A stretch of DNA of 64,000 bases from an uncultured Gemmatimonadales bacterium (GTDB lineage: Bacteria; Gemmatimonadota; Gemmatimonadetes; Gemmatimonadales; GWC2-71-9): NCBI GenBank assembly GCA_963831425.1, contig CAWHQC010000015.1, positions 100,821 through 164,820 of the forward strand. Reading direction: 5' to 3'. The notes below the pieces were generated by a model, which saw nothing but the letters and a program-made list of their open reading frames with translations, made no database searches and had not been told where the DNA came from. This document shows positions 2,779 to 47,055 of the stretch, piece by piece (positions within the stretch are counted from its first letter, which is position 1; each line of letters begins with the position of its first letter). The position numbers and the translations under genes are program-made.

Positions 2779-3836
2779 CGCGCAGCCCGAGCCGCCGCCG
2801 CGCCGCGGCGGGAGAGATGACGTGCAGATGGTCCAGCACCGTTCCTCTCGCCTCCCGATCCCGAGCCGTTCCACCAGCGCGCGGCGCGCGCCACCAGCCA
2901 GTCCGTCGGCGATCAGCGCCGCCCCCTGCGCGCCCTGCTTGGCCCGCGAGGCGAAGCCGGTCGACGATCGGACCTCGCCGATGCTCCGCCAGCGCCGCCA
3001 GCAGCGCGTCCCGCATCGCCGGCTCGGCGGCCATCCGGCCGGAGAGCAGGATCTCGTCCGCCGTCGGGCGCCGCGCTCCGGAGCTGGCGCGCCGCCCGGG
3101 CGGCGCCTTCGAGGTAGGCCTCGAGCGCCACGGCCGCGAGCGCCGGAGTCGTCGCTCGATGACGCGAGGCGACGCCGCCGCTGAAAGAGCAGTCGCCTTG
3201 GTCACCTCGCCCGCGAGGAAGGCGACTTCGCCGTCGAGCGCGCCGGCCGCGCGCCAGCCGATCGGCCCGCTGCTCCCGCCGAGCCCGTCCACGATCCGGC
3301 CGCGCTCGACCGCGAGCCCCGCGGTGAACGCGCCGCCCAGCTCGAGCAGCACCAGCGAGACGTGTCCCGCGGCCGCGCCCGCGGCGGCTCGCTCTGGTCC
3401 GCGATCGCCAGCGCCGCCGCGCAGACCTTGTCGGCCGTGCCCAGGTCGACCCGGTTGAGCTTCCGGTGCGCGCGGCACCGTATCGAGGTGGATCACGCCG
3501 GGGGTGAACACGAGCGGCAGCCCGGCCGCGTCGAGCTGCCGCGCCAGCGTCCGCAGGCCGCCGATCCCGCCCGCCTCACCGGGCGGCGGCGAGAAAGGCG
3601 AGCCGAAGCTCCTCGTCGCTGACGTCGCTGCGCCGGACGGAGCGGCAGGCCGTAGCCGGAGGGGCCGACGACCAGATCGAGCGGGCCCGCGCGGCCAGAA
3701 GCGCGTCGAGCAGCGGCCGCGGGTCCGCCAGCACCTCGGCCGTGGGCCAGGTCGCGTCGAGGTAGAGCCGGCCATCGTCCAGGCCGCAGACGTCCAGGCT
3801 CAGCGTGCCCGGGATCGATCCCGCGACGCGCGGCAC
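2771..3836 (-). CDS. DUF1464-like (ASKHA/butyrate-kinase-like fold) protein, frameshifted as assembled.
   Basis: GTG start with VPRVAGSIPGTLSLDVCGLDDGRLYLDATWPT in the tail of ORF 3576..4721. ORF 2771..3775 then gives GGIGGLRTLARQLDAAGLPLVFTPGVIHLDTVP and VSLVLLELGGAFTAGLAVERGRIVDGLGGSSGPIGWRAAGALDGEVAFLAG. The family assignment is from memory. Confidence 0.45.
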
Positions 3837-3840
3837 CGCG

Positions 3841-4721
3841 CTACCGCTTCTGCGGCACCATCTCCCGGGCCACGTCGGCGATGGCCTCGGCGTCGAGCAC
3901 CAGGTCGTTCCGGGTGAACAGCCGCGCGACGCACGCCTTGTGGAGCTTCGTCTTGAAGTTGCCGACGCCGAACGCGCCGAAGACCGCGACGCCGTCCCGC
4001 TCGCTCGCCCGCATCGTCGACTTCGACGCCCTCGATGCCGAGCGGCGGCACGGCGTTGAGGTCCACGGCCACCTTGAGCGTCTTCACGCGCGGTCCAGGC
4101 CGACCTGCGGCACCATCTGCACGCCCGGCCGGGCCGGAGTTGAGCAGGATCTCCGCGCCGTCCAGCAGCTCGGGGAGCTTGGAGGGATCGTTCATCGCGA
4201 CGGCATCGACCTGGACGTCGAACCGCGCACCGATGAACTGGCGCGCCTTGTCGCCCTGCTCCGGCTTGCGCGAGGTGATGGTGACGCTGCGCGCCGTCCT
4301 TGGCCAGCAGGCCGGCCGCGCGCTGGCCCACCGGGCCGGTGCCGGCGAGGATCAGCGACCTTCTTGCCGCTGCAGGTCGCCGAGCGTCTCCTCGATCTTC
4401 ACCACCGCGGCCACCGCGGTGGTGTTCGAGCCGTTGGAGTCGAGCATGATGGAGACGCGAGAACGGCGCGAACAGCGCGTCCTGCGCCATCGCCAGGAGC
4501 TGCTCGCCGGCCGACATGTTGTTGCCGCCGATCCAGACGGCGGTGTTGTGCAGGTCCTTGGGGCCGCGGGTGAAGATGCAGCCGTGGATGAGATCGCGGA
4601 CGTCGCCTTCGGTGACGCCGCCGTAGCTCATGATGGCGTCGGCGCCCGCGTCGTACGCGACGACCTGGTCGAACACGCTGGGCAGCCGGGAGCTGTCGAG
4701 CTGGAGCAGGAGCTTGCGCAT
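3841..4721 (-). CDS. mtdB: NAD(P)-dependent methylene-tetrahydromethanopterin dehydrogenase (MtdA/MtdB family), frameshifted as assembled.
   Basis: [76 protein letters not shown] and [22 protein letters not shown] lie in ORF 3576..4721. [19 protein letters not shown] lies in ORF 3800..4195. The C-terminus [39 protein letters not shown]-stop is in a third frame. Confidence 0.7.
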
Positions 4722-4832
4722 TGCCGGACCGATCTCCCTCGAGGGGCTCGTACGACTCGTGGAAAGATACGAGGGGCGCGCCCGACGGCGGGCCGCCCCT
4801 CGTGGACACTCCGGTGCAGCGGGACTGTACGA

Positions 4833-5347
4833 TCAGCCCTCGGCGCCGCTGGCGAACGGATGCCGCGCGGCCTTGTACTTGGAGAGCACCTCGTCGACCG
4901 TCGGCTTGCCCTTGCAGCGCGCGGGCGATGGACTCCTTGGTCGCCTGGTAGTTGTACTGGTAGATCTTCTTGTCGTCCTCGGCCTGCCAGTGGATGAACA
5001 CGCCCACGAGGATGACGAGGTCGTTGGCCTGCGTCTTGGAGATGACGCCCTTCGCTCACCGAATCCATGACCGCGCGGGCCACGGCCGCCTGGGCCGGGC
5101 CGAACATCTGAACGGCCTGCTTGGCGCCCTTGATCGTGACCTTGTTGAACAGCACCGTGTCGGGCTTGCAGGGCAGGTTCGGGGTGACCACGGCGAGCAG
5201 CGTGGTGAAGCCGTCGGTGTTGCTGGAGAGCGCCTGGGTGAACGCCGCTCCGGCCGGGCCGGTCTTCGACCCGATGATCAGGTCGATGTGCGCGATCTCG
5301 TTGCCATCGCCGACAAGCGATTCACCGATTGAGAAGTCCGCGGCCAT
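4833..5347 (-). CDS. fae: Formaldehyde-activating enzyme, two frameshifts as assembled.
   Basis: [97 protein letters not shown] lies in ORF 4628..5398. [31 protein letters not shown] lies in ORF 4399..5007. [25 protein letters not shown]-stop lies in a third frame. A GGAGG Shine-Dalgarno sits before the ATG. Confidence 0.8.
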
Positions 5348-5586
5348 ACCTGCCTCCATGTGCGATTTGGTGAAGAGCGAAAGGATTTGCCGAAACATCC
5401 GCAGCTCGACGAGGCGAAGAGTGAGCCGGCAACTGGAGCGACGTGGACGGGAGCGAGGCCACGCGGTCCCGCAAGGCGGGTAGCTCGAACTGGGCGACGC
5501 AGCTCGTGCGCAGAGGCCACTAGTATGGCCGCCCCCCAGAGACCTGTCAAGGAGTCCGCCACCCCGGTACGCCGCGCGGTGCGCGA

Positions 5587-5615
5587 TTGCAGTCGCTCTG
5601 GCTTCGGTGTATATT
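5587..5615 (+). promoter_or_regulatory. Sigma70-like promoter candidate, TTGCAG-17 nt-TATATT.
   Basis: TTGCAG at 5587..5592, an exact 17-nt spacer and TATATT at 5610..5615, about 33 nt upstream of the ATG at 5648. Confidence 0.4.
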
Positions 5616-5619
5616 CGGT
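5603..5619 (+). promoter_or_regulatory. Direct-repeat operator candidate TTCGGTgtataTTCGGT (11-bp period), straddling the -10 hexamer.
   Basis: Third copy of the motif also seen at 25547..25564 and 36905..36922. Confidence 0.45.
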
Positions 5620-5647
5620 GATCGGCAATCCCGAACGCAAGTGGTTC

Positions 5648-5881
5648 ATGACCAAGCGCTTAGTCGCACACGAAGCGCCCGCGCCGAGCCGGGCCAATCG
5701 CTTCCATACCTTCCTCCGGCGGCTCCGCGCCGGCGGCCGCAGCAACATGTACGGCGCCATTCCCTACCTGATGCAGGCGTTCGAGCTCGACCGTGAATCG
5801 GCCTTTCGGATCGTGTGCGAGTGGGTGGATCAGCAGGCGGAGGAGGCGGAAGCAACCCGACACTCGTCCTCCCGGCGCTGA
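5648..5881 (+). CDS. Small hypothetical protein (77 aa).
   Basis: [69 protein letters not shown].. (inner Met of ORF 5360..5881). It has its own promoter-like signals. No family recognised. Confidence 0.4.
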
Positions 5882-22170: not shown

Positions 22171-25100
22171 GCGTCACCACCCCGAACTCCTCCTCGACCT
22201 TCCCCCGAAAGATGAACGGTCCCTGATCGAACAGCACGTGACCGCGCTCACGATAGATGTCCGGGAAGAGCACGACCTCGATGAGCCCGTCGCCATCGTC
22301 GAAGGTGGCGAACTCCATCGGCTCGTCCTTCAGCGTGTGGACCGGCTTGGCGCTGGTGAGCATCCCGGCCGCCAGCACGTGCTCGCCTACGTGCCGGTGC
22401 AGTTCCGTGCTGGGACAGAGCCGGAACCGCCGGAGGTCGTCCGCGTAGAGCCGCATCGGGTGCGCGTCGGTGGTGAAGCCGAGGGCGGCGTGCTCCTCCC
22501 GGCGGCGGCGCTCGGGGCCGTACTCCTTGAGCACGGGCACGGCGGGCGGAAGGTGGTCGAACCAGTCGCCCGGGCGATCGTCGGGTGAGCGGACGCACTC
22601 GGCGGTCGAATCCACCAGCCAGAGCATCATGGGCCGGGTCCAGTCGCCCGCGATCGAGTCCAGCGCGCCGACCTTGATGAGCGCGCGCAGGTCGGCGGGG
22701 GAGATGCCGGTGCGGGCGCGGAGGTCGGCCAGGCTGGTGAACGGGCGGAAGGATGGAAGGACGGAAGGCGGAAAGGGAGAAAGGACCCGCGGCCAGGCAC
22801 CGGCACTGTCATCCCGAGCGGAACTGTCATCCCGGGCGGAACTGTCATCCCGAGCGGAGCGAGGGATCTGGCCGGGCCGAGCTCGAACCATTCCCAGCAA
22901 GATCCCTCCGTCGCTGGCGCTCCCTCGGGATGACAGTCCCGCTCGTCGTCTTCCTCCGCCCGCTTCTCCCTCCCTCCATCCCGCGCTTCCAGCACCCGCT
23001 CGGCCCCCTCCGCCGACAGCTCCTTCACGAACTGCAGCCCGATCCGGAGCTCCCGCCCGCGGCCGGTCGTGCGGAGTTCGCTCGCGTTCACGTCGGGCGG
23101 CAGCACGGTGAGCCCCATGCGCATGGCCTCGGCGACGTAGACGAACGGGTGATAGAACCCGCCCCCGTTGGCCAGCACCGCGGCCATGAACTCGGCCGGA
23201 TGGTGCGCGCGCAGGTAGCACGCGTGCTGCGCCACCTGGATGTACGACGCCGAGTGTCCCTTGCAGAAGCTGTAGCCGGCGAACGACAGGATCATCGCCC
23301 AGACCCGCTTGGCCGTCTCGGCGTCGCGGCCGAGCGCGAGCGCGCCGGTGAAGAACTCCTCGGCGTAGCCGGCGAGCGCCCTGGCGGGTCTCTTCTTGGA
23401 GAGCGACTTCCGGAGTCCGTCGGCGGTGGCGAGCGGCATCCCGGCAAAGGCGGCGCACACGTTGACCACGTCCTCCTGGTAGACCATGACGCCGAACGTC
23501 TCGGCCAGCGTGTCGCGCAGCACGGGGTCGAGCGGCTCATAGGGCGCGCCGTGCAGCCGCTCGAGATAGAGCCGGATGAAACGGTTGGAAGCGGGGCGGA
23601 TGATGCTGGTGTTGAGTACCAGCAGCTCGAAGGTGTCGGCCCGACTCTTGGCGCAGAGCGCCCGCGAGGCGGGCGACTCGGTGTAGAACACGCCCATCGT
23701 CCGGCCGGTCCGGAAGAGCTCCTTCGTGGGCTCGTCGTCGCCGGGATCGGAGGAGGTGTAGTCGATGTGCCGGCCGGTGTGCGCGTGCACCGCCGTGATG
23801 GCGTCGCGGATGACGGCCAGCGAGCGGTTGCCGAGCAGGTCGATCTTGATCAGCCCCGTGTCTTCGGCGCCGTCCTTCTCGAACTGGATGACGGGCACGG
23901 TCAGATCCGGGTGCCCGTCGAGCGTCTTGACCGCGCGCTCGGTCGGCACGTAGTCGGTGAGCGCGGTGGGCACGATCACGACGCCGCCCGGGTGAAGCGA
24001 GAGGTGCCGCGGCACGCCCACCAGCGGCGCCGCCATCCGGGCCAGCTCCTGCCAGCTCGGCGGCAGGTCGAGCGCCTTGAAGTTGGGATGGGTGGCGAGC
24101 ATCTCCTCGAGCGGCTGCTCCTCGTACCACGGGATCCGGCGCGTCACCTCGCGGATCTCGCCGTTGGGCCGCCCGTGCACCTTGGCCACCTCCCGGAGCG
24201 CGCCGCGGAGGCGGAAGCAGTTGTGGTTGGCCACCATCGCGGCCTGCGGATGGGGGTAGTGCCGGAACACGTAGGCCAGAACGTTGTCGCGCTCGTCCCA
24301 CGGAAAGTCGAGGTCGATGTCGGGCGGGTCCGTGCGCGCCGGATTGAGGAACCGCTCGAACAGGAGCCCCGCGCCGAGCGGCTCGACGTGGGTGATGCCG
24401 AGACAGTAGCTCACGATCGAGTTGGCGACGGAGCCGCGGCCGCAGTGGGTGGGGCCGTGCTCGACGATGTCGCGCACCACCAGGAAGTAGTCGGCGAACC
24501 CCTTCATCCCGATGATCCGGAGCTCGTGCTCGAGCCGGTCGCGCGTCACCGGCGCGATGGTGCCGTAGCGCCGCTCGGCGCCGGCATAGGCGAGCGCGCG
24601 GAGCTCCTGGGTGGCGTCGTTCGCGTCGGCGAAGCGCGGCGACACCACGCGGCCCACCGGAATCCGGTACGCGCAGCGCTCGGCGATCTCGGCCGCGGCC
24701 CGCAGCGCCTCGGGGCAGTCCGGGAACTGGCGCGTGAGGTCGGCGGTGGGGCGGAGCCAGGCGTCGCGGGCAGACGGTCGGGCGGGCAGGCGGTCGGGTG
24801 GTTGGGGGGTCTCACTCTCCTCCCGACCGTCCGACCGCCTGTCCACCCGCCCGCCCGAGAGCGTGCCGTTGAGGTGGATCGCCCGGAGGAGCCGGTGGCG
24901 GCTCCAGTCTTCGGGGTGCGCCATGACGACGGCGTTGGTGACGACGGGCGGAAGGCCCATGCGGCGCGCGGCGGCGAGCACGGCGTGGCGCTTCTTGCCG
25001 GGACGGAGCTCGGCGTAGAGGTCCCGCGGCCCACTCAGGCGGAGAACGCGCTCCAGGAAGGCGGGATCCTGTGAGAGGAGGACGAGGCCGGCGCGATCGG

Positions 25101-25509
25101 CGGCGAGGGAGGCGGAAAGACGGAAAGACGGAACGACGGAAGGATGGAAAGGCGGGGCAGGTAACCCCGATCGCGGCTGATTGTCCTTCCGTCCCTCCAT
25201 CTTTCCGTCCTTCCCTCCTTCCGTCCAGTGAATCTCCGTGATCGTCCGGCAGAGCGCCGCCCACCCGCGCTCGTCCATCGCGAGGGCGACGGTCTCCTCA
25301 TCCTCGGTGACGAGGTGCGCGCCGAGGATGGGTCGCACGCCGGCAGCCTCGCAGACGCGCTGGAACTCGACGGCTCCGTAGACGCCATTGGTGTCGGTGC
25401 AGGCAAGCGTGCCGAACCCTCGCTCGGCCGCCGCGCCGGCAAGGACCTCGGGACTCGAAACACCGGTGCCGAAGGAGAAGTGGGTGTGGAGGTGCAGGTG
25501 GGTAAACAT
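22061..25509 (-). CDS. dnaE2: Error-prone DNA polymerase III alpha homologue DnaE2. It carries two in-frame hairpin-repeat insertions and a 236-nt composite repeat insertion that changes the reading frame near the C-terminus.
   Basis: The PHP start [21 protein letters not shown] and full-length alpha-subunit similarity lie in ORF 22627..25752 ([14 protein letters not shown].., [48 protein letters not shown]). After ..[19 protein letters not shown] the conserved sequence resumes as [29 protein letters not shown].. in ORF 22061..23458. Confidence 0.85.
22745..22980. mobile_element. Composite nested palindromic (MITE-like) insertion inside dnaE2.
   Basis: The outer arms are GGAAGGATGGAAGGACGGAAGGCGGAAAGGGAGAAAGG (22748..22785) and its approximate complement at 22946..22983. 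The inner element has three 18-nt tandem units CTGTCATCCCGRGCGGAA (22806..22859). The last extends to ..GCGAGGGATCT and pairs with AGATCCCTCC..CCCTCGGGATGACAG (22900..22936). Confidence 0.75.
24772..24852. repeat. 81-nt hairpin element with 8-nt periodic G-rich/C-rich arms, in frame inside dnaE2.
   Basis: AGACGGTCGGGCGGGCAGGCGGTCGGGTGGTTGG, loop, TCCCGACCGTCCGACCGCCTGTCCACCCGCCCGCCCGA. It is translated as [27 protein letters not shown] between conserved ..LNGTLSG and ARDAWLRP... Confidence 0.7.
25105..25226. repeat. About 120-nt hairpin element with 8-nt periodic purine/pyrimidine arms, in frame inside the dnaE2 PHP region.
   Basis: GGAGGCGGAAAGACGGAAAGACGGAACGACGGAAGGATGGAAAGGCGG, 28-nt loop, TCCTTCCGTCCCTCCATCTTTCCGTCCTTCCCTCCTTCCGTCC. 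It is translated as [41 protein letters not shown]. Confidence 0.7.
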
Positions 25510-25545: not shown

Positions 25546-25564
25546 GTTCGGGTTTTCTTCGGTA
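25546..25564 (+). promoter_or_regulatory. Direct-repeat operator candidate GTTCGGGttttcTTCGGTA (11-bp period), upstream of dnaE2.
   Basis: It lies 37-55 nt upstream of the dnaE2 ATG (25509) and downstream of a TTGACG hexamer (coding strand, 25592..25587). 16 of 19 positions are identical to the site at 36904..36922. Confidence 0.5.
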
Positions 25565-25928
25565 AGGTGCTGTCGGCGGCGGCGCGCGTCAAGGAGGCGC
25601 GGAAGCCGTGGGCTTCGGACGCGCCATCCTGACCCAGCTCCGCGCTCACCTCCTGCCGAAGGCCCCGGCACTTGCCGGCATGGTGGCCGCTGGTGGATCG
25701 CGAACACGTTCACCGATTCTCCCGTGCGTTCGGTGCTTCGCTCGGTCGACATCGGCCGCGGAGGAACGCACGTGGTCAGCGGTTCGGTGTAGAAGGCGAT
25801 GCACTTCTGGCTGCCGCTGCTGGCGGCGGCGCTCTGCGCCTATCTGGGCGAGGCATCGCGAGCGATTAACGCCAGCCGGCCGGAGCACGGCACCGCATCA
25901 CGGCGGCCGATTTTTCCTCCGATGATGC

Positions 25929-33920: not shown

Positions 33921-34604
33921 ATGTTCGGATATTCCGCGATGGCGACGGCGCTACTGATGCTGGGTGCCGCCTCGCTCGCGCAAGCTCAGCAGGCCGCCAG
34001 CGACACGGCTGGTAGAGACAGTACTCACGTCATGCGCGTGCGCGCACGGGATGAGCGGACCATCACCACCGATACGGTCCGGCTGCATCGGGAGATGGCG
34101 ATCCGGGACTCCGCCCGAACGCTGCTGGATCAGGACCAGGCACAAACGCACGCGACCGGAAAGCAGATCGACTCGCTCAAGGCCGTGTTGGATCGCGAGC
34201 GGAAAGCCACCCCGCGCGATACCGTGGCGATCAACCGCAACCTGGCCGCGCTGACGGGCCTGCGGCAGAAGCTCGACCGGGACCTGGACCGGGACCGCCG
34301 GGTGAAGGCGCGGGTGGACTCGCTCGACAGTCGAGTCCGGAAGGAGTCGGAAGCCGCGATTGACGCTCACCAGAACATCAAGGAGAGCCGCACCACGCCG
34401 CAGGCGCATGCCGCGGCCTCGAAGACGCGATCGCTGACGCCGGAGACGCCCGTCCCCCGCACCAGCCCCGCCCGCCCCAGCGGCCGCGGATCCGATCGAT
34501 CGCGTGCTGCAGGGCGCGGGCACGGGCGGGGTGAGTCGCTCCGAGCGGGAGCTGAGGGGCCCGAGTGCCGAGGTCCGTGGTCCCTTCGCCCCGCTCGGGA
34601 CTGA
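33921..34604 (+). CDS. Secreted coiled-coil hypothetical protein. The 3' end is probably over-extended into the convergent imuB-like gene.
   Basis: MFGYSAMATALLMLGAASLAQAQQ signal-like start (inner Met of ORF 32763..34604), followed by charged heptad-like sequence ..LLDQDQAQTHATGKQIDSLKAVLDRERKATPRDTVAINRNLAALTGLRQKLDRDLDRDRRVKARVDSLDSRVRKESEAAI. Confidence 0.4.
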   Translation: MFGYSAMATALLMLGAASLAQAQQAASDTAGRDSTHVMRVRARDERTITTDTVRLHREMAIRDSARTLLDQDQAQTHATGKQIDSLKAVLDRERKATPRDTVAINRNLAALTGLRQKLDRDLDRDRRVKARVDSLDSRVRKESEAAIDAHQNIKESRTTPQAHAAASKTRSLTPETPVPRTSPARPSGRGSDRSRAAGRGHGRGESLRAGAEGPECRGPWSLRPARD

Positions 34605-35681
34605 CTCGCTTCGCCGGCATCCTGCCCCTCCCACAGCTCCAGCTGCCCCTCCGCCTCCTCCAGCCGGTCGAGCGTGAGCGCCACCGCCCGCACCGCGAGC
34701 CGCCGCGCGTTGGCCCGGGTGAACGCGCGGCGCGCGGCGTCCCACAGCTCGGCGTCGAGCGCCGCGGCGTGGAGCGCCACGGCGCGGGCGGCGTCGGTGT
34801 GGTCGGCGTAGGTGAGCGCGACCCGGAGCCGCCGCGCCACCAGCCCGCGCCGGCGGAGCCGGCGGCCGAGCCGCTCGCCCAGGAGGCGGAGCAGCGGGTG
34901 CAGCACGCCGAGGTCGTTGGTGTCGGTGGCCAGCGCGTGGGCCACGTGGAACTCGGCCTGCCGCTCGGGCGGGAGCACGGGCCGCGGGTCGATGCCGCGC
35001 GCCTGCGCCCGGAGCGTGCGGCCGGCGCCGCCGAAGACCGCGCAGAGCGCGCTCTCGGAGATGGCCGCGACCTCGCCGATGAGATCGAGCTGGTAGTCGT
35101 CGAGCCGCCGGCGCATCCCGGGATGCAGCTCGGGCAGCACGTCGAGCGGATGGGGCGCGAGGAAGCCGGCCTCGTCGCCGCCCGGCACCTCGAGCAGCGG
35201 CTCGGGCTTGACGACGGTGGTGGCGGCCTGGCTCACCAGCTTGTTGGCGGCGACGCCGACCGAGACCGGGAGCCGGAGCCGCTGCGCGCACCTCGCGCTG
35301 CACCCGCGCGGCGACGTCCACCGCCGGGCCCGAAGAGCCGGCCGGTGCCGGTGAGGTCGAGGAAGGCGTGGCCGTAGCCGTGCGGGCTCGATGACCGGCG
35401 CGTAGACCCGGAGCACCTCGTGCAGCGCCTGCGAGGCCCGCGCGTAGAGCCGCGGGTTGGGCGGGAGCAGCACGAGGTCGGGGCAGCGCTTGAGCGCCTG
35501 CCGCACCGGCATCCCCCGCTCGATGCCCGCCAGCCGCGCCTCGGCCGAGAGCGCGAGGATGGTGGCGCGGTCGGCGCCGGGCGGCGCCACCGCGACCGGC
35601 CGCGTGCGGAGCGCCGGGCGCGACGAGGCCTTCGACGGTGGTGCAGAAGGCGGGAGGGTCGACGAAGAGGACGGAGCGCAT
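34367..35681 (-). CDS. imuB: Y-family DNA polymerase homologue, ImuB-like. The palm DE pair is not visible and a beta-clamp-type motif is present. Multiply frameshifted.
   Basis: MRSVLFVDPPAFCTTVEGLV lies in ORF 33951..35681. VAPPGADRATILALSAEARLAGIERGMPVRQALKRCPDLVLLPPNPRLYARASQALHEVLRVYAPVIEP lies in ORF 34367..35590. HGYGHAFLDLTGTGRLFGP lies in ORF 35233..35805. LPVSVGVAANKLVSQAATTVVKPEPLLEV..FLAPHPLDVLP and QLELW (34631..34645) follow. Confidence 0.7.
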
Positions 35682-35695
35682 GAGACAGCGGGGCG

Positions 35696-36723
35696 CTACA
35701 GCAGCCGCGGCTGCTCTGCCGCCGCCCGGTCCTCGCGCCCCTCGAGCTGCCGGCTCCTCCGCATCCCCTCGTCCACCGGAAACCCATGCCGCCGCTGCAG
35801 CTCATGCAGCCGCTCCGACAGCGCGCGCTGGTACGCCGGGCTCACTCCCTCGCGCCGCGCGTAGTGCCGCGCGTACCGCTCGGCCAGCTCCGGGAACTCG
35901 CGGGCGAGCACGGGAAGGAAGCGGTGCCGCGCCGCGGGGCCGAGCCGGAGCGCCGACCCGACCACGTAGCGGGCGCCCGCCGCCTTCGCCGCGCCCATGA
36001 GCCGATCGAGCCCCGCGCGATCGTCGGTGATGCCCGGAAGGATCGGCGCCAGGAGGAGCCCCGCGTGGATACCGCCGGCGGTGAGCCGGCCCAGGGCACG
36101 GATCCGCGACGCGGGTACCGGCGAGCGAAGCTCGAGCCGGCGCGCCAGCCGGCGGTCGAGCGTGGCCAGCGAGATGTTCACCGTGACCTCGTGCCGCTCG
36201 GCCGAGCCGGCCGAGCAGGTCGAGGTCGCGCGTCACCAGCGGCGACTTGGTGATGATGCCGATGGCGAGCCCGCGGTGCCCCAGCAGCACCTCGAGAATC
36301 CGGCGGGTGAGCCGGAACCGGCGCTCGGCCGGTTGATATGGATCGGTGGCCGTGCCGATGACCAGCGTGTGTCCGCCCAGGCGTGCGGGATCGAGCGTGC
36401 GGGCAAGCACCTCGGCCACGCCGGTCTTGACCAGGATGCGCCGCTCGAACGCCTCCCACGCGGGCAGCGGCTCCGGCGCGCGCGCCGCTTCGCTCGACCG
36501 CGTAGCGGTGGGTGTCGCGCGCGTAGCAGTAGGTGCAGCCGAACTCGCAGCCGACATACGGGTTGATCGACCAGAAGCCCATGCCGGTGGAGGCCGCGGT
36601 GTTGAGAACCGAGCGTACCGGGAGCTCGAGGAAGCGGGTGCCGCGCTGCCGCTCGTCCAGCAGCGCCCACCGGCGTTCCGATGCCCCGGCCGAGGGCAGC
36701 AGGTCGAGCTGCCGCGGAGTCAC
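35696..36723 (-). CDS. Radical SAM protein of the COG1533 / Rv2578c-like (so-called DNA repair photolyase) family, about 3 frameshifts.
   Basis: GTG start in a GTGA overlap with the upstream small ORF. FLELPVRSVLNTAASTGMGFWSINPYVGCEFGCTYCYARDTH carries CX3CX2C at 36526..36549. LVIGTATDPYQPAERRFRLTRRILEVLLGHRGLAIGIITKSPLVTRDLDLL lies in ORF 35802..36557. VNISLATLDRRLARRLE..LLAPILPGITDD..RYVVGSALRLGPAARHRFLPVLAREFPELAERY lies in ORF 35696..36181. Confidence 0.75.
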
Positions 36724-36890
36724 CCGCAGCGGCCCCAGCCGCAGTGCCGGCAGCTCACGCAGCCCGAGGCGCGGATGAGCGGGCCGGCGCACTCGGGACA
36801 GACGCGGAGGACGGTCTCGGTGGAGGGGTCGCGCCGGGGCGGTTGGTAGCGCGTGGGGGCGAGGGGCGGGCGAGGGTGGAAGGGTGGCAT
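36720..36890 (-). CDS. 56-aa zinc-ribbon peptide, translationally coupled to the radical SAM gene.
   Basis: It is not in the ORF track because it is under 60 aa. ATG at 36890, TGA at 36722..36720. The sequence is MPPFHPRPPLAPTRYQPPRRDPSTETVLRVCPECAGPLIRASGCVSCRHCGWGRCG, with a CPEC-x9-CVSC-x2-C pattern. Confidence 0.45.
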   Translation of the reverse strand: MPPFHPRPPLAPTRYQPPRRDPSTETVLRVCPECAGPLIRASGCVSCRHCGWGRCG

Positions 36891-36904: not shown

Positions 36905-36922
36905 TTCGGTATTTGTTCGGTA
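36905..36922 (+). promoter_or_regulatory. Direct-repeat operator candidate TTCGGTAtttgTTCGGTA (11-bp period), between the promoter and the start of the Zn-ribbon/radical SAM/imuB operon.
   Basis: It lies 15-32 nt upstream of the ATG at 36890. Near-identical sites occur at 25547..25564 and 5603..5619. Confidence 0.5.
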
Positions 36923-36930
36923 CTCCTCCT

Positions 36931-36961
36931 CATAAATGCGACCCGTGGTCCGGCATGTCAA
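36931..36961 (-). promoter_or_regulatory. Promoter candidate with a perfect TTGACA -35 and an AT-rich -10 region (CATTTAT).
   Basis: The coding strand reads cccTTGACAtgccggaccacgggtcgCATTTATgaggagg. The -35 is at 36961..36956. The -10 hexamer is ambiguous, giving a 17-19 nt spacer. Confidence 0.4.
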
Positions 36962-45215: not shown

Positions 45216-47055
45216 ATGGCAACCACCGCACTCGACCAGCAACGGGCCCACGCGGCCGCGGGTCACGAACCGACCGGTCTCTGGAGCTGGATCACCACGG
45301 TCGATCACAAGCGGATCGGCATCCTCTACGGCGCCACCGCCTTCACTTCTTCCTCATGGGCGGCATCGAGGCCCTGCTGCTGCGTATCCAGCTCGGCACG
45401 CCGAACAACACGTTTCTGTCGCCGGAGACGTACAACGAGCTGTTCACGATGCACGGCACCACCATGATCTTTCTCGCGATCATGCCGCTCAGCGCCGCGT
45501 TCTTCAATTTCATCATTCCGCTTCAGATCGGCGCGCGGGACGTGGCGTTCCCGCGGCTGAACGCGTTCAGCTACTGGGTCTTCCTGCTGGGCGGTCTGTT
45601 CCTGAACGCGAGCTGGCTCTTCGGGGCGGCGCCGGACACCGGCTGGTTCGGCTACGCCAACCTCACGTCGAAGCAGTACTCGCCCGGGCTGCACGTGGAC
45701 TTCTGGATGCTGGGCCTCCAGACCCTTGGCGTGGCGTCCCTGGCGGCGGCGGTCAACTTCTTCATGACCGTCGCTGAACATGCGCGCGCCCGGCATGAAG
45801 CTCATGCGCATGCCGATCTTCACCTGGATGAGCTTCATCACCCAGGTGCTGCTGCTGCTGGCCTTCCCGGTGATCACGGTGGCCCTGATTCTGCTCATGT
45901 TCGACCGCTTCTTCGGCACCAACTTCTACGTGCCGTCGGCCGGGGGCGATCCGCTGCTGTGGCAGCACCTGTTCTGGATCTTCGGGCATCCCGAGGTCTA
46001 CATCCTGATCCTGCCGGCGTTCGGCATCGTGTCCGAAATCCTGCCGGTCTTCGCCCGGAAGCCGCTGTTCGGCTACGCGGCCATGGTGTTCTCCGGGCAT
46101 TTTCATCGCCTTCCTCGGGTTCGGCGTGTGGGCACACCACATGTTCGCCACCGGCATGGGCCCGATCGCCGACACCTATTTCTCTCTCGCCACCATGCTG
46201 ATCGCGATCCCCACGGGGGTGAAGATCTTCAACTGGCTGGGGACGGTCTGGGGCGGCTCGATCCAGTACAAGACGCCGGTCTACTTCGCGCTGGGCTTCG
46301 TCGCGATGTTCATCATCGGCGGCCTGTCGGGGGTCATGCACGGCTCCCCGCCCGCCGACCTGCAGCAGACCGACACCTACTTCGTCGTGGCGCACTTCCA
46401 CTACGTGATGTTCGGCGGCAGCATCTTCGGCCTCACCGCCGGCGCGTACTACTGGTGGCCCAAGATGTTCGGCCGCGTTCTCGACGAGGGGCTGGGCAAG
46501 CTGCACTTCTGGCTCATGCTGATCGGGTTCAACCTGACGTTCTTCCCGATGCACATCCTGGGGCTCAACGGGATGCCGCGCCGGGTCTACACCTATCCGG
46601 AGGGCCTCGGGTTCGAGGAGCTGAACCTGCTGGAGACGGTGGCCGCGTTCGTGCTCGCCGCCTCGTTCGCGGTGTTCCTGTACAACATCATCAAGACCTG
46701 GCGCGGGCCGCGCAACGCGCCGGCCGACCCGTGGAACGCCGCCACCCTCGAGTGGGCGATCCCGTCGCCGCCGCAGGAGTGGAACTTCGCGGAAATCCCC
46801 GTGGTGCACGGCCGCGACCCGCTGTGGGAAGCCAAGCGTGAGCGCGGGGGGCCGCTGCCGGAGCCGCCGAGGGTGAGCGGGGCGGGCATCCACATGCCCA
46901 ACCCGTCGTATTGGCCGCTGGTGACCGCCATCGGCCTCTCCGCGATGATGAGCGGACTGATGCTGATCCACCACCTCGGGCCGTGGGGCATCATCGCCGG
47001 CGGCGCGATCCTGCTGTTCGGGGTGTTCAACTGGGCGTTCGAGCCCGCGGGCTGA
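45216..47055 (+). CDS. ctaD: Cytochrome c oxidase subunit I, 3 frameshifts as assembled (about 45345, 45775, 46100).
   Basis: [26 protein letters not shown] lies in the tail of ORF 44106..45467. [46 protein letters not shown] lies in ORF 45356..46201. [45 protein letters not shown] lies in ORF 45780..46841. [23 protein letters not shown] lies in ORF 46126..47055. Confidence 0.9.

Follow-up and report, generated by a model that had tools for sequence, protein, structure and literature searches.

A direct-repeat candidate operator of damage-tolerance and repair genes conserved across Gemmatimonadota

The promoter of a minus-strand operon in a 64-kb window (the whole stretch of 64,000 nucleotides analysed here, 71% G+C) carries a 7-bp sequence that is repeated with an 11-bp period. 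The first-pass annotation had grouped this repeat with two others in the window as a candidate SOS-type operator. The locus thus raises the question of whether the three sites are one motif, whether they are placed to control transcription and which protein might bind them. An exhaustive scan of both strands for TTCGG-N6-TTCGG returned exactly three matches (Table 1), against a chance expectation of 0.26, and none of 100 dinucleotide-preserving shuffles reached three. When the window was scored with a PSSM derived from the relatives' sites, no further position came to 12 bits or more. On re-reading the sequence, we obtained the same letters for all three sites as before, and the earlier judgement that they represent a single motif beyond chance stands. 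Comparing the promoters of orthologues in relatives (loci are given below by L numbers), we found all three sites conserved.

Table 1 Positions of the repeats, promoter elements and genes in the window
Feature	Position	Strand	Details
Operator 1	36905..36922	+	TTCGGTA-TTTG-TTCGGTA; + strand reads TTCGGTATTTGTTCGGTA; 34.5 bits
Operator 2	25547..25564	+	TTCGGGTTTTCTTCGGTA; 32.1 bits; 37 nt upstream of the dnaE2 start
Operator 3	5603..5620	+	TTCGGTGTATATTCGGTG; 26.9 bits; 28 nt upstream of the 77-aa ORF
-35 hexamer TTGACA, promoter at operator 1	36956..36961	-	Aligned with TTGACA/TTGACG/TTGACC in relatives
-10 region CATTTA/ATTTAT, promoter at operator 1	36932..36938	-	17-18 nt downstream of the -35; TATATT or CATATT in relatives at this position
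Zn-ribbon ORF	36723..36890	-	56 codons; CPEC...CRHC; first gene of the operon
Rv2578c/PA0069-family radical SAM gene	35696..36648	-	Three reading frames; frameshifts near 36490 and 36190
Y-family DNA polymerase (Pol IV/DinB-like)	34367..35690, start approximate	-	IMS and IMS_C domains
-35 hexamer TTGACG, dnaE2 promoter	25587..25592	-	cTTGACG is conserved among aligned relatives
dnaE2-type error-prone Pol III alpha homologue	22627..25509	-	Pfam PHP, DNA_pol3_alpha, finger, HHH_6
Promoter at operator 3	-35 TTGCAG 5587-5592; -10 TATATT 5610-5615	+	-10 lies inside the box
77-aa gene	5648..5881	+	Uncharacterised family; invariant core including LDRE.AFR.VC.WVD; basic N-terminal tail

Operator 1 lies 14 nt upstream of the minus-strand ATG at 36890 and, read on the gene strand as TACCGAACAAATACCGAA, follows the -10 element by about 10 nt. 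The surrounding promoter is as originally described, with TTGACA, an AT-rich -10 region and that ATG, all on the minus strand. The start codon had been noted in connection with a translesion polymerase; it is indeed present, but the gene it opens is the Zn-ribbon ORF, and the polymerase gene comes later in the operon. Conservation of the Zn-ribbon ORF is confined to its last ~30 residues. We found tblastn matches to it in 12 loci, in every case (12/12) ahead of a radical SAM gene. The ORF and its counterpart in a relative (L107:7625-7792) resemble the Zn-ribbon tail found at the C-terminus of B12-dependent (class II) ribonucleotide reductase; the match to positions 728-759 of NF006417 has an E value of 3e-6, under that family's curated cut-off. 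The peptide may partner the radical SAM enzyme in redox reactions.

The radical SAM gene itself is intact in L107, where it matches NF038135 (E ~1e-68) and NF033668 (E ~1e-64), both below the curated cut-offs. The Y-family polymerase was traced by tblastn against an L046 protein (35611-34628), and its best NCBIfam matches are Pol IV models, again below curated cut-offs. In many relatives the operon is longer and comprises Zn-ribbon, radical SAM, Pol IV, tag and dnaE2 genes (L012, for example). The box occupies the identical place in L107, L105 and L110, and paired or single boxes occur at this operon in L088, L186, L118, L083, L184, L197 and L182. Because several other genes in the window look frameshifted too, the interruptions of the radical SAM gene are probably assembly indel errors and not the mark of a pseudogene. 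Apparent frameshifts are seen in fae (~4628-5398), where the Pfam match covers part of the ORF, and in a cytochrome oxidase subunit I-like gene (~45356-47055), recognized by eye as two overlapping ORFs.

At the second site, the box abuts or overlaps a weak -10 (CACCTT), an arrangement shared with L001, L004 and L072. The dnaE2 gene downstream has 590 relatives, of which the closest are in Gemmatimonadales MAGs, with up to 93% identity. Across ~66 Gemmatimonadota dnaE2 loci, a box stands upstream of dnaE2 or of the first visible gene of its operon in ~50; most loci scored as box-less have their operon start outside the 3-kb flank. The C-terminus of the window's dnaE2 product does not align with most relatives past residue ~845, which again suggests indel errors of the assembly. 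Tandem short repeats (one frame reads ...SEKREARSEK...) flank the tag-dnaE2 promoter of L035 at 2000-2420 and 2900-3000, and a similar low-complexity insertion lies inside the window's dnaE2 ORF.

The third site controls, if it is an operator, a gene for a 77-residue protein. A homologue search collected 427 clusters of this family, and searches of Pfam, NCBIfam, PHROG and PDB returned no match for the protein. A box with an embedded TATATT is present in every orthologous promoter examined (L480, L488, L489 and L494-L499); in all orthologues examined, the fae/77-aa synteny is kept together with the pattern TTCGG-NN-TATAT-TCGG, which places the -10 within the box. In an AF2 model of the protein (pLDDT 72), three helices form a bundle, and the third of them is long. 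Fold searching with this model returned nothing significant, the top matches being homeodomains with E > 3. Between fae, on the minus strand, and the 77-aa gene, positions 5400-5600 form a strongly conserved non-coding block whose segments read, in order, GAGGCCACGCGGTCCCGC..GCGGGTAGCTCG..AGAGGCCACTAGTATGG..CCTGTCAAGGAG; L480, L488, L494, L495 and L498 share it. The fae-mtdB-DUF1464 (H4MPT C1) operon may have in this block a leader or a riboswitch-like element. An Rfam scan of the window, this block included, returned no match.

Aligning 48 distinct sites gave the consensus yTTCGG-K-N-TTT-N-TTCGG-TA, in which the core positions were set by the search patterns. One-mismatch variants of the box number only 5 in 1.03 Mb of Gemmatimonadota loci, a test covering single mismatches; the 10-base operator core is almost invariant. 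We then scanned one genome per species (185,579 species) for exact occurrences of TTCGGTATTTNTTCGGTA and obtained at least 120 matches. Among the 120 matches listed, 72 carry Gemmatimonadota or Longimicrobiales names and 2 more come from MAGs with the same promoter type, giving ~74 Gemmatimonadota-type sites; both Gemmatimonadales and Longimicrobiales are represented among these. For 50 of these ~74 listed sites, a damage-tolerance or repair gene follows within 450 bp downstream: ImuA (18 sites), Zn-ribbon/radical SAM (17), DnaE2 (11), ImuB (2), Tag (1) and a Y-family polymerase (1). Some of the remaining sites fall at the edges of the examined sequence blocks. Further sites adjoin DinB-superfamily genes, gyrB, a cho-like GIY-YIG gene and a second radical SAM gene, as well as an integron-integrase-like gene and phage-type recombination genes recognized by sequence reading. 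The loci of relatives bear out the proposal that the window's sites belong to a damage-tolerance and repair regulon, and they extend it across the phylum.

The scans also touched on mobile DNA. A box precedes phage-type recombination genes, read from sequence as Sak/Rad52-like and Sak4-like ATPase genes, in L100 (~2481) and L145 (~5159), and in L196 (~3347) one lies between imuA and the integron-integrase-like gene; at these three loci mobile elements may be tapping the same regulator. A search of a plasmid collection found no Gemmatimonadota replicon with the cassette. A scan of viral contigs for the box yielded 55 matches, and since only 1 of them is in a high-GC contig, there is no sign of phage use. 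Outside the phylum, a 'Chloroflexota' MAG contains a 7-copy repeat element with four 11-bp TTCGG units, and Carboxylicivirga and Bacteroidales MAGs contain long palindromes built of 11-bp TTCGG units (loci L086, L115, L120, L127, L143 and L155; L119, L138, L139, L151 and L188). Such arrays probably represent mobile or repeat elements that have nothing to do with the operator. Psychrobacter matches of the genome scan represent conserved intergenic sequence, likewise unrelated to the Gemmatimonadota system.

Placement relative to promoter elements follows a few recurring layouts, and the box can point either way with respect to the gene. One layout consists of cTTGACG-N17/18-TAGATT or TACATT, 10-12 nt and then TACCGAAnAAAnnCCGAA, so that the box covers ~+3 to +25; operator 1 conforms to it (TTGACA, 17 nt, CATTTA, 9-10 nt, box), as do L107, L105 and L110. 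In another, the box exactly fills the 16-nt spacer (TTGACT|TTCGG...TTCGG|TAnnnT). Here the start codon sits at the expected transcript start, which suggests that these mRNAs are leaderless. Promoters of the 77-aa gene form a further layout with the -10 within the box. Lastly, some radical SAM promoters carry two boxes in inverted order (L088, L186 and L118) and some imuA promoters two in tandem. The promoter hexamers of some imuA loci are hard to recognize. We considered whether the box could itself be an alternative-sigma promoter and rejected this, as canonical -35 and -10 elements flank or overlap it and its 11-bp period misfits promoter geometry.

Because orientation relative to the gene varies, the box would act on DNA and not on RNA. 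All placements fall within the footprint of a sigma-70-like RNA polymerase, which argues for a repressor operator over an activator site or alternative promoter; the earlier suggestion that a protein bound at these sites would block RNA polymerase agrees with their placement in the window and in relatives. We consider it probable, from sequence evidence, that the box is a repressor-type operator of a damage-tolerance and repair regulon. In the mechanism that we propose, a sequence-specific repressor would bind the two TTCGG pentamers, which lie 11 bp apart on one helix face with a T-rich spacer between them. Its occupancy of the box would exclude or stall RNA polymerase, and its loss would switch the operons on. 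The predicted regulon comprises the Zn-ribbon/Rv2578c-type radical SAM/Pol IV/tag/dnaE2 operons, the imuA-imuB(-dnaE2) cassettes, the ~77-aa gene and scattered repair genes. We infer repression itself from where the box sits, and it is the gene content that points to induction by DNA damage; candidate repressors are discussed below.

LexA is the leading candidate. We obtained lexA genes by a codon-level scan for the S24 active-site motif, which gave one from Gemmatimonadaceae and one from Longimicrobiaceae, and used the protein as a query to collect 14 genome loci and 80 metagenome loci. Gemmatimonadota LexA is canonical, scoring 174 bits against TIGR00498 (cut-off 111) with LexA_DNA_bind and Peptidase_S24 domains and with the Ala-Gly, Ser and Lys residues present. 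Its winged helix-turn-helix is almost invariant between the Gemmatimonadaceae and Longimicrobiaceae representatives, which fits an almost invariant box found in both Gemmatimonadales and Longimicrobiales and speaks for LexA. KSTKTVSDLL, its recognition helix, resembles that of Firmicutes and Actinobacteria, in contrast to the alphaproteobacterial RSKSGIHRLI. The Gram-positive-type LexA half-site is CGAAC, whose CGAA/TTCG is common to the box, a further point in favour of LexA. Pairwise scores are 62-92 bits (~29-32% identity) against alphaproteobacterial LexA versus 107-134 bits against the Thermodesulfobacteriota/delta type.

Enrichment of the motif ahead of lexA had been named by the first-pass annotation as support for a LexA box, and absence of the motif from the lexA and recA promoters together with a different palindromic box there as evidence to the contrary. 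At lexA the motif is indeed absent, and no other palindromic box was found. TTCGG-N6-TTCGG is absent upstream of lexA at all 94 loci (14 genome and 80 metagenome); the only match near lexA is an atypical one, CCGAACACCCCCCGAA, in L329, and 270 kb around lexA contained no box. MAG JBDUCM01 illustrates the pattern, with a box at imuA (L093) and none at lexA (L322). A dyad search upstream of lexA recovered nothing conserved except the -35 GTTGACC and the -10 GTACATT, while the positive control recovered the box. The reverse search agreed: neither lexA, recA nor another S24 gene lies beside the ~74 listed consensus sites or the ~66 dnaE2 loci (tblastn and phmmer with E. coli LexA and RecA queries), and the sole RecA-like matches near sites are ImuA. 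With no box and no other conserved dyad, lexA appears not to be autoregulated by any recognizable site. Autoregulation is a defining feature of the LexA-box family and was looked for here in vain, so membership of the TTCGG repeat in that family is unproven. The missing lexA site weakens the reading as a LexA box, but does not discriminate between LexA binding TTCGG and LexA binding something else. We put at about even the chance that the canonical LexA of Gemmatimonadota is the repressor, in which case it would lack autoregulation. The lexA loci (L320-L333 and L400-L479) have features of their own: by eye, lexA lies downstream of a gltX-type gene, its promoter (GTTGACC-N17-GTACATT) is strong and conserved with no recognizable operator, and its leader of ~80 nt includes a GC-rich hairpin-like segment.

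The box shares traits with several known systems. Like it, the LexA box of Alphaproteobacteria and Acidobacterium capsulatum (GTTC-N7-GTTC) is a direct repeat of 11-bp period that stands ahead of imuA-imuB-dnaE2-type cassettes and overlaps their promoters. The first-pass annotation had equated the geometry of the two; the period does agree, but the GTTC tetramer is not kept and the LexA type differs. The invariant core here is TTCGG, with a G before the first TTC in 5/48 sites and before the second in 16/48, and the corresponding tetramers of the window's sites read TTTC/GTTC, GTTC/CTTC and CTTC/ATTC. The Gemmatimonadota spacer is also strongly T-rich, and Gemmatimonadota lexA is without the site. 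Given the ~29-32% identity of the LexA proteins and their different recognition helices, we see no sign of lateral transfer as proposed for Acidobacterium. As the first-pass annotation stated, GTTC-N7-GTTC was reported for Acidobacterium capsulatum (cited as reference 53 in PMC7739468).

A second comparison is with the Gram-positive/actinobacterial Cheo box (CGAAC-N4-GTTCG), which has the same TTCG/CGAA core. The recognition helices of Cheo-type LexA proteins (KSTSSVH and SSTSSVA) are the closest to the Gemmatimonadota KSTKTVS. However, the half-sites of the Cheo box form a palindrome, their centres 8 bp apart, and those of the Gemmatimonadota box a direct repeat with 11-bp spacing. Radical SAM genes of the Rv2578c type occur in Actinobacteria as well, as the NCBIfam family name indicates, and may be under LexA control there. 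Gemmatimonadota and Balneolaeota both belong to the FCB group. The Balneolaeota LexA motif TTACACATATTTTWTACATA (ACATA-N6-ACATA) likewise has an 11-bp period and a T-rich spacer, its binding has been validated experimentally, and its regulon includes translesion polymerases, a radical SAM protein, lexA and recA (PMC7739468). Its half-site differs from TTCGG, and the Balneolaeota regulon contains lexA whereas the Gemmatimonadota one does not. According to the same authors, direct-repeat recognition evolved several times in LexA (PMC7739468). The Balneolaeota case adds to the points in favour of LexA as the binder.

Two further systems resemble the box in layout. Pho-box and other OmpR-family sites also consist of 7-bp direct repeats with a 4-bp AT-rich spacer, but such sites mostly serve activators and take the place of the -35 in fixed orientation, unlike the Gemmatimonadota box, which occupies the spacer or lies downstream of the -10 in both orientations. 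The mycobacterial RecA-NDp/PafBC motif (TTGTCRGTG-N8-TAnnnT), which controls DNA-damage genes independently of LexA, likewise has TCGGT just upstream of the -10. It differs in being a single-unit activator motif of fixed position and orientation that replaces the -35, and its spacing is off by one. No gene for a WYL-domain regulator was noted among site-adjacent proteins, which were inspected by eye and partly checked with Pfam.

If LexA is not the binder, a dedicated non-LexA repressor might recognize the box and control only the mutagenesis and repair module, an explanation that we regard as a possible but less probable one. The absence of the box from lexA at 94 loci is in line with it, as is the lack of recA or lexA genes among the sampled sites, and the regulon may indeed be the mutagenesis and repair module alone, run by such a factor. 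Against this, no regulator gene is linked to the operons, and lexA is without any other conserved operator either, so its lack of autoregulation does not separate a dedicated repressor from LexA. Possibly, the ~77-aa protein is that repressor, being phylum-wide and very conserved with a basic N-terminal arm and three predicted helices. Its 427-member family has an invariant core and no known domain, and its own promoter bears the box in every orthologue checked, as expected for an autoregulated factor. The modelled three-helix bundle with its long third helix, together with the homeodomains that head the non-significant fold matches, is also compatible with this role. Since all of those matches have E > 3, the protein is a putative DNA binder only; moreover, it has no obvious means to sense DNA damage, and small lineage-specific proteins are ordinary members of SOS regulons. 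It seems rather unlikely that a LexA-independent repressor, possibly the 77-aa protein, acts on the TTCGG repeat while canonical LexA has another role.

Other explanations would remove the repressor altogether. The 7+4+7 arrangement and 11-bp period are also those of the Pho box and CtrA sites, and the boxes of '+'-oriented promoters extend exactly up to the -10, as would a tandem site for an OmpR/PhoB-type winged-helix response regulator that activates transcription by replacing the -35. Good -35 hexamers (TTGACG and TTGACT) nevertheless adjoin the box, which often lies downstream of the -10 in the opposite orientation, where such an activator could not work; in addition, no response-regulator gene is linked. 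We therefore hold an OmpR/PhoB-type site to be very improbable. Still more remote are readings of the box as a fortuitous match, as a mobile-element end or as an RNA element of the 5' leader. The shuffles speak against chance, and conservation of the box at orthologous promoters across the phylum speaks against all three. TTCGG units of 11-bp period do form multi-copy tandem and palindromic arrays in the 'Chloroflexota' bin and some Bacteroidota, but Gemmatimonadota sites have just two units and unrelated flanks. The box is transcribed from some promoters, as an RNA element would be; often, however, it lies upstream of the transcription start, its orientation flips and Rfam finds nothing in the window.

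The reading that we favour remains a repressor-type operator. In the literature that we searched, no LexA motif, SOS regulon or DNA-damage regulation is described for Gemmatimonadota, and the operator appears to be new: an apparently undescribed, phylum-specific direct repeat of a damage-tolerance regulon that would work like an SOS box. What emerges is a testable operator with a defined regulon that contains two kinds of mutagenesis cassette, a Zn-ribbon-led radical SAM operon, tag and a new 77-aa family. It was unexpected that the Gemmatimonadota lexA promoter is strong and constitutive-looking, with no recognizable operator. If LexA binds the box, LexA would once more have turned independently to a direct repeat, here with autoregulation lost as well. 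Otherwise, some new regulator of the damage response remains to be found, and a LexA-independent repressor would mean that both the regulatory system for DNA damage and its family of DNA-binding proteins are new. Gemmatimonadota rank with the most abundant phyla of soil. With the motif, regulons can be predicted in thousands of MAGs, and it points to candidate genes for stress-induced mutagenesis in soil bacteria.
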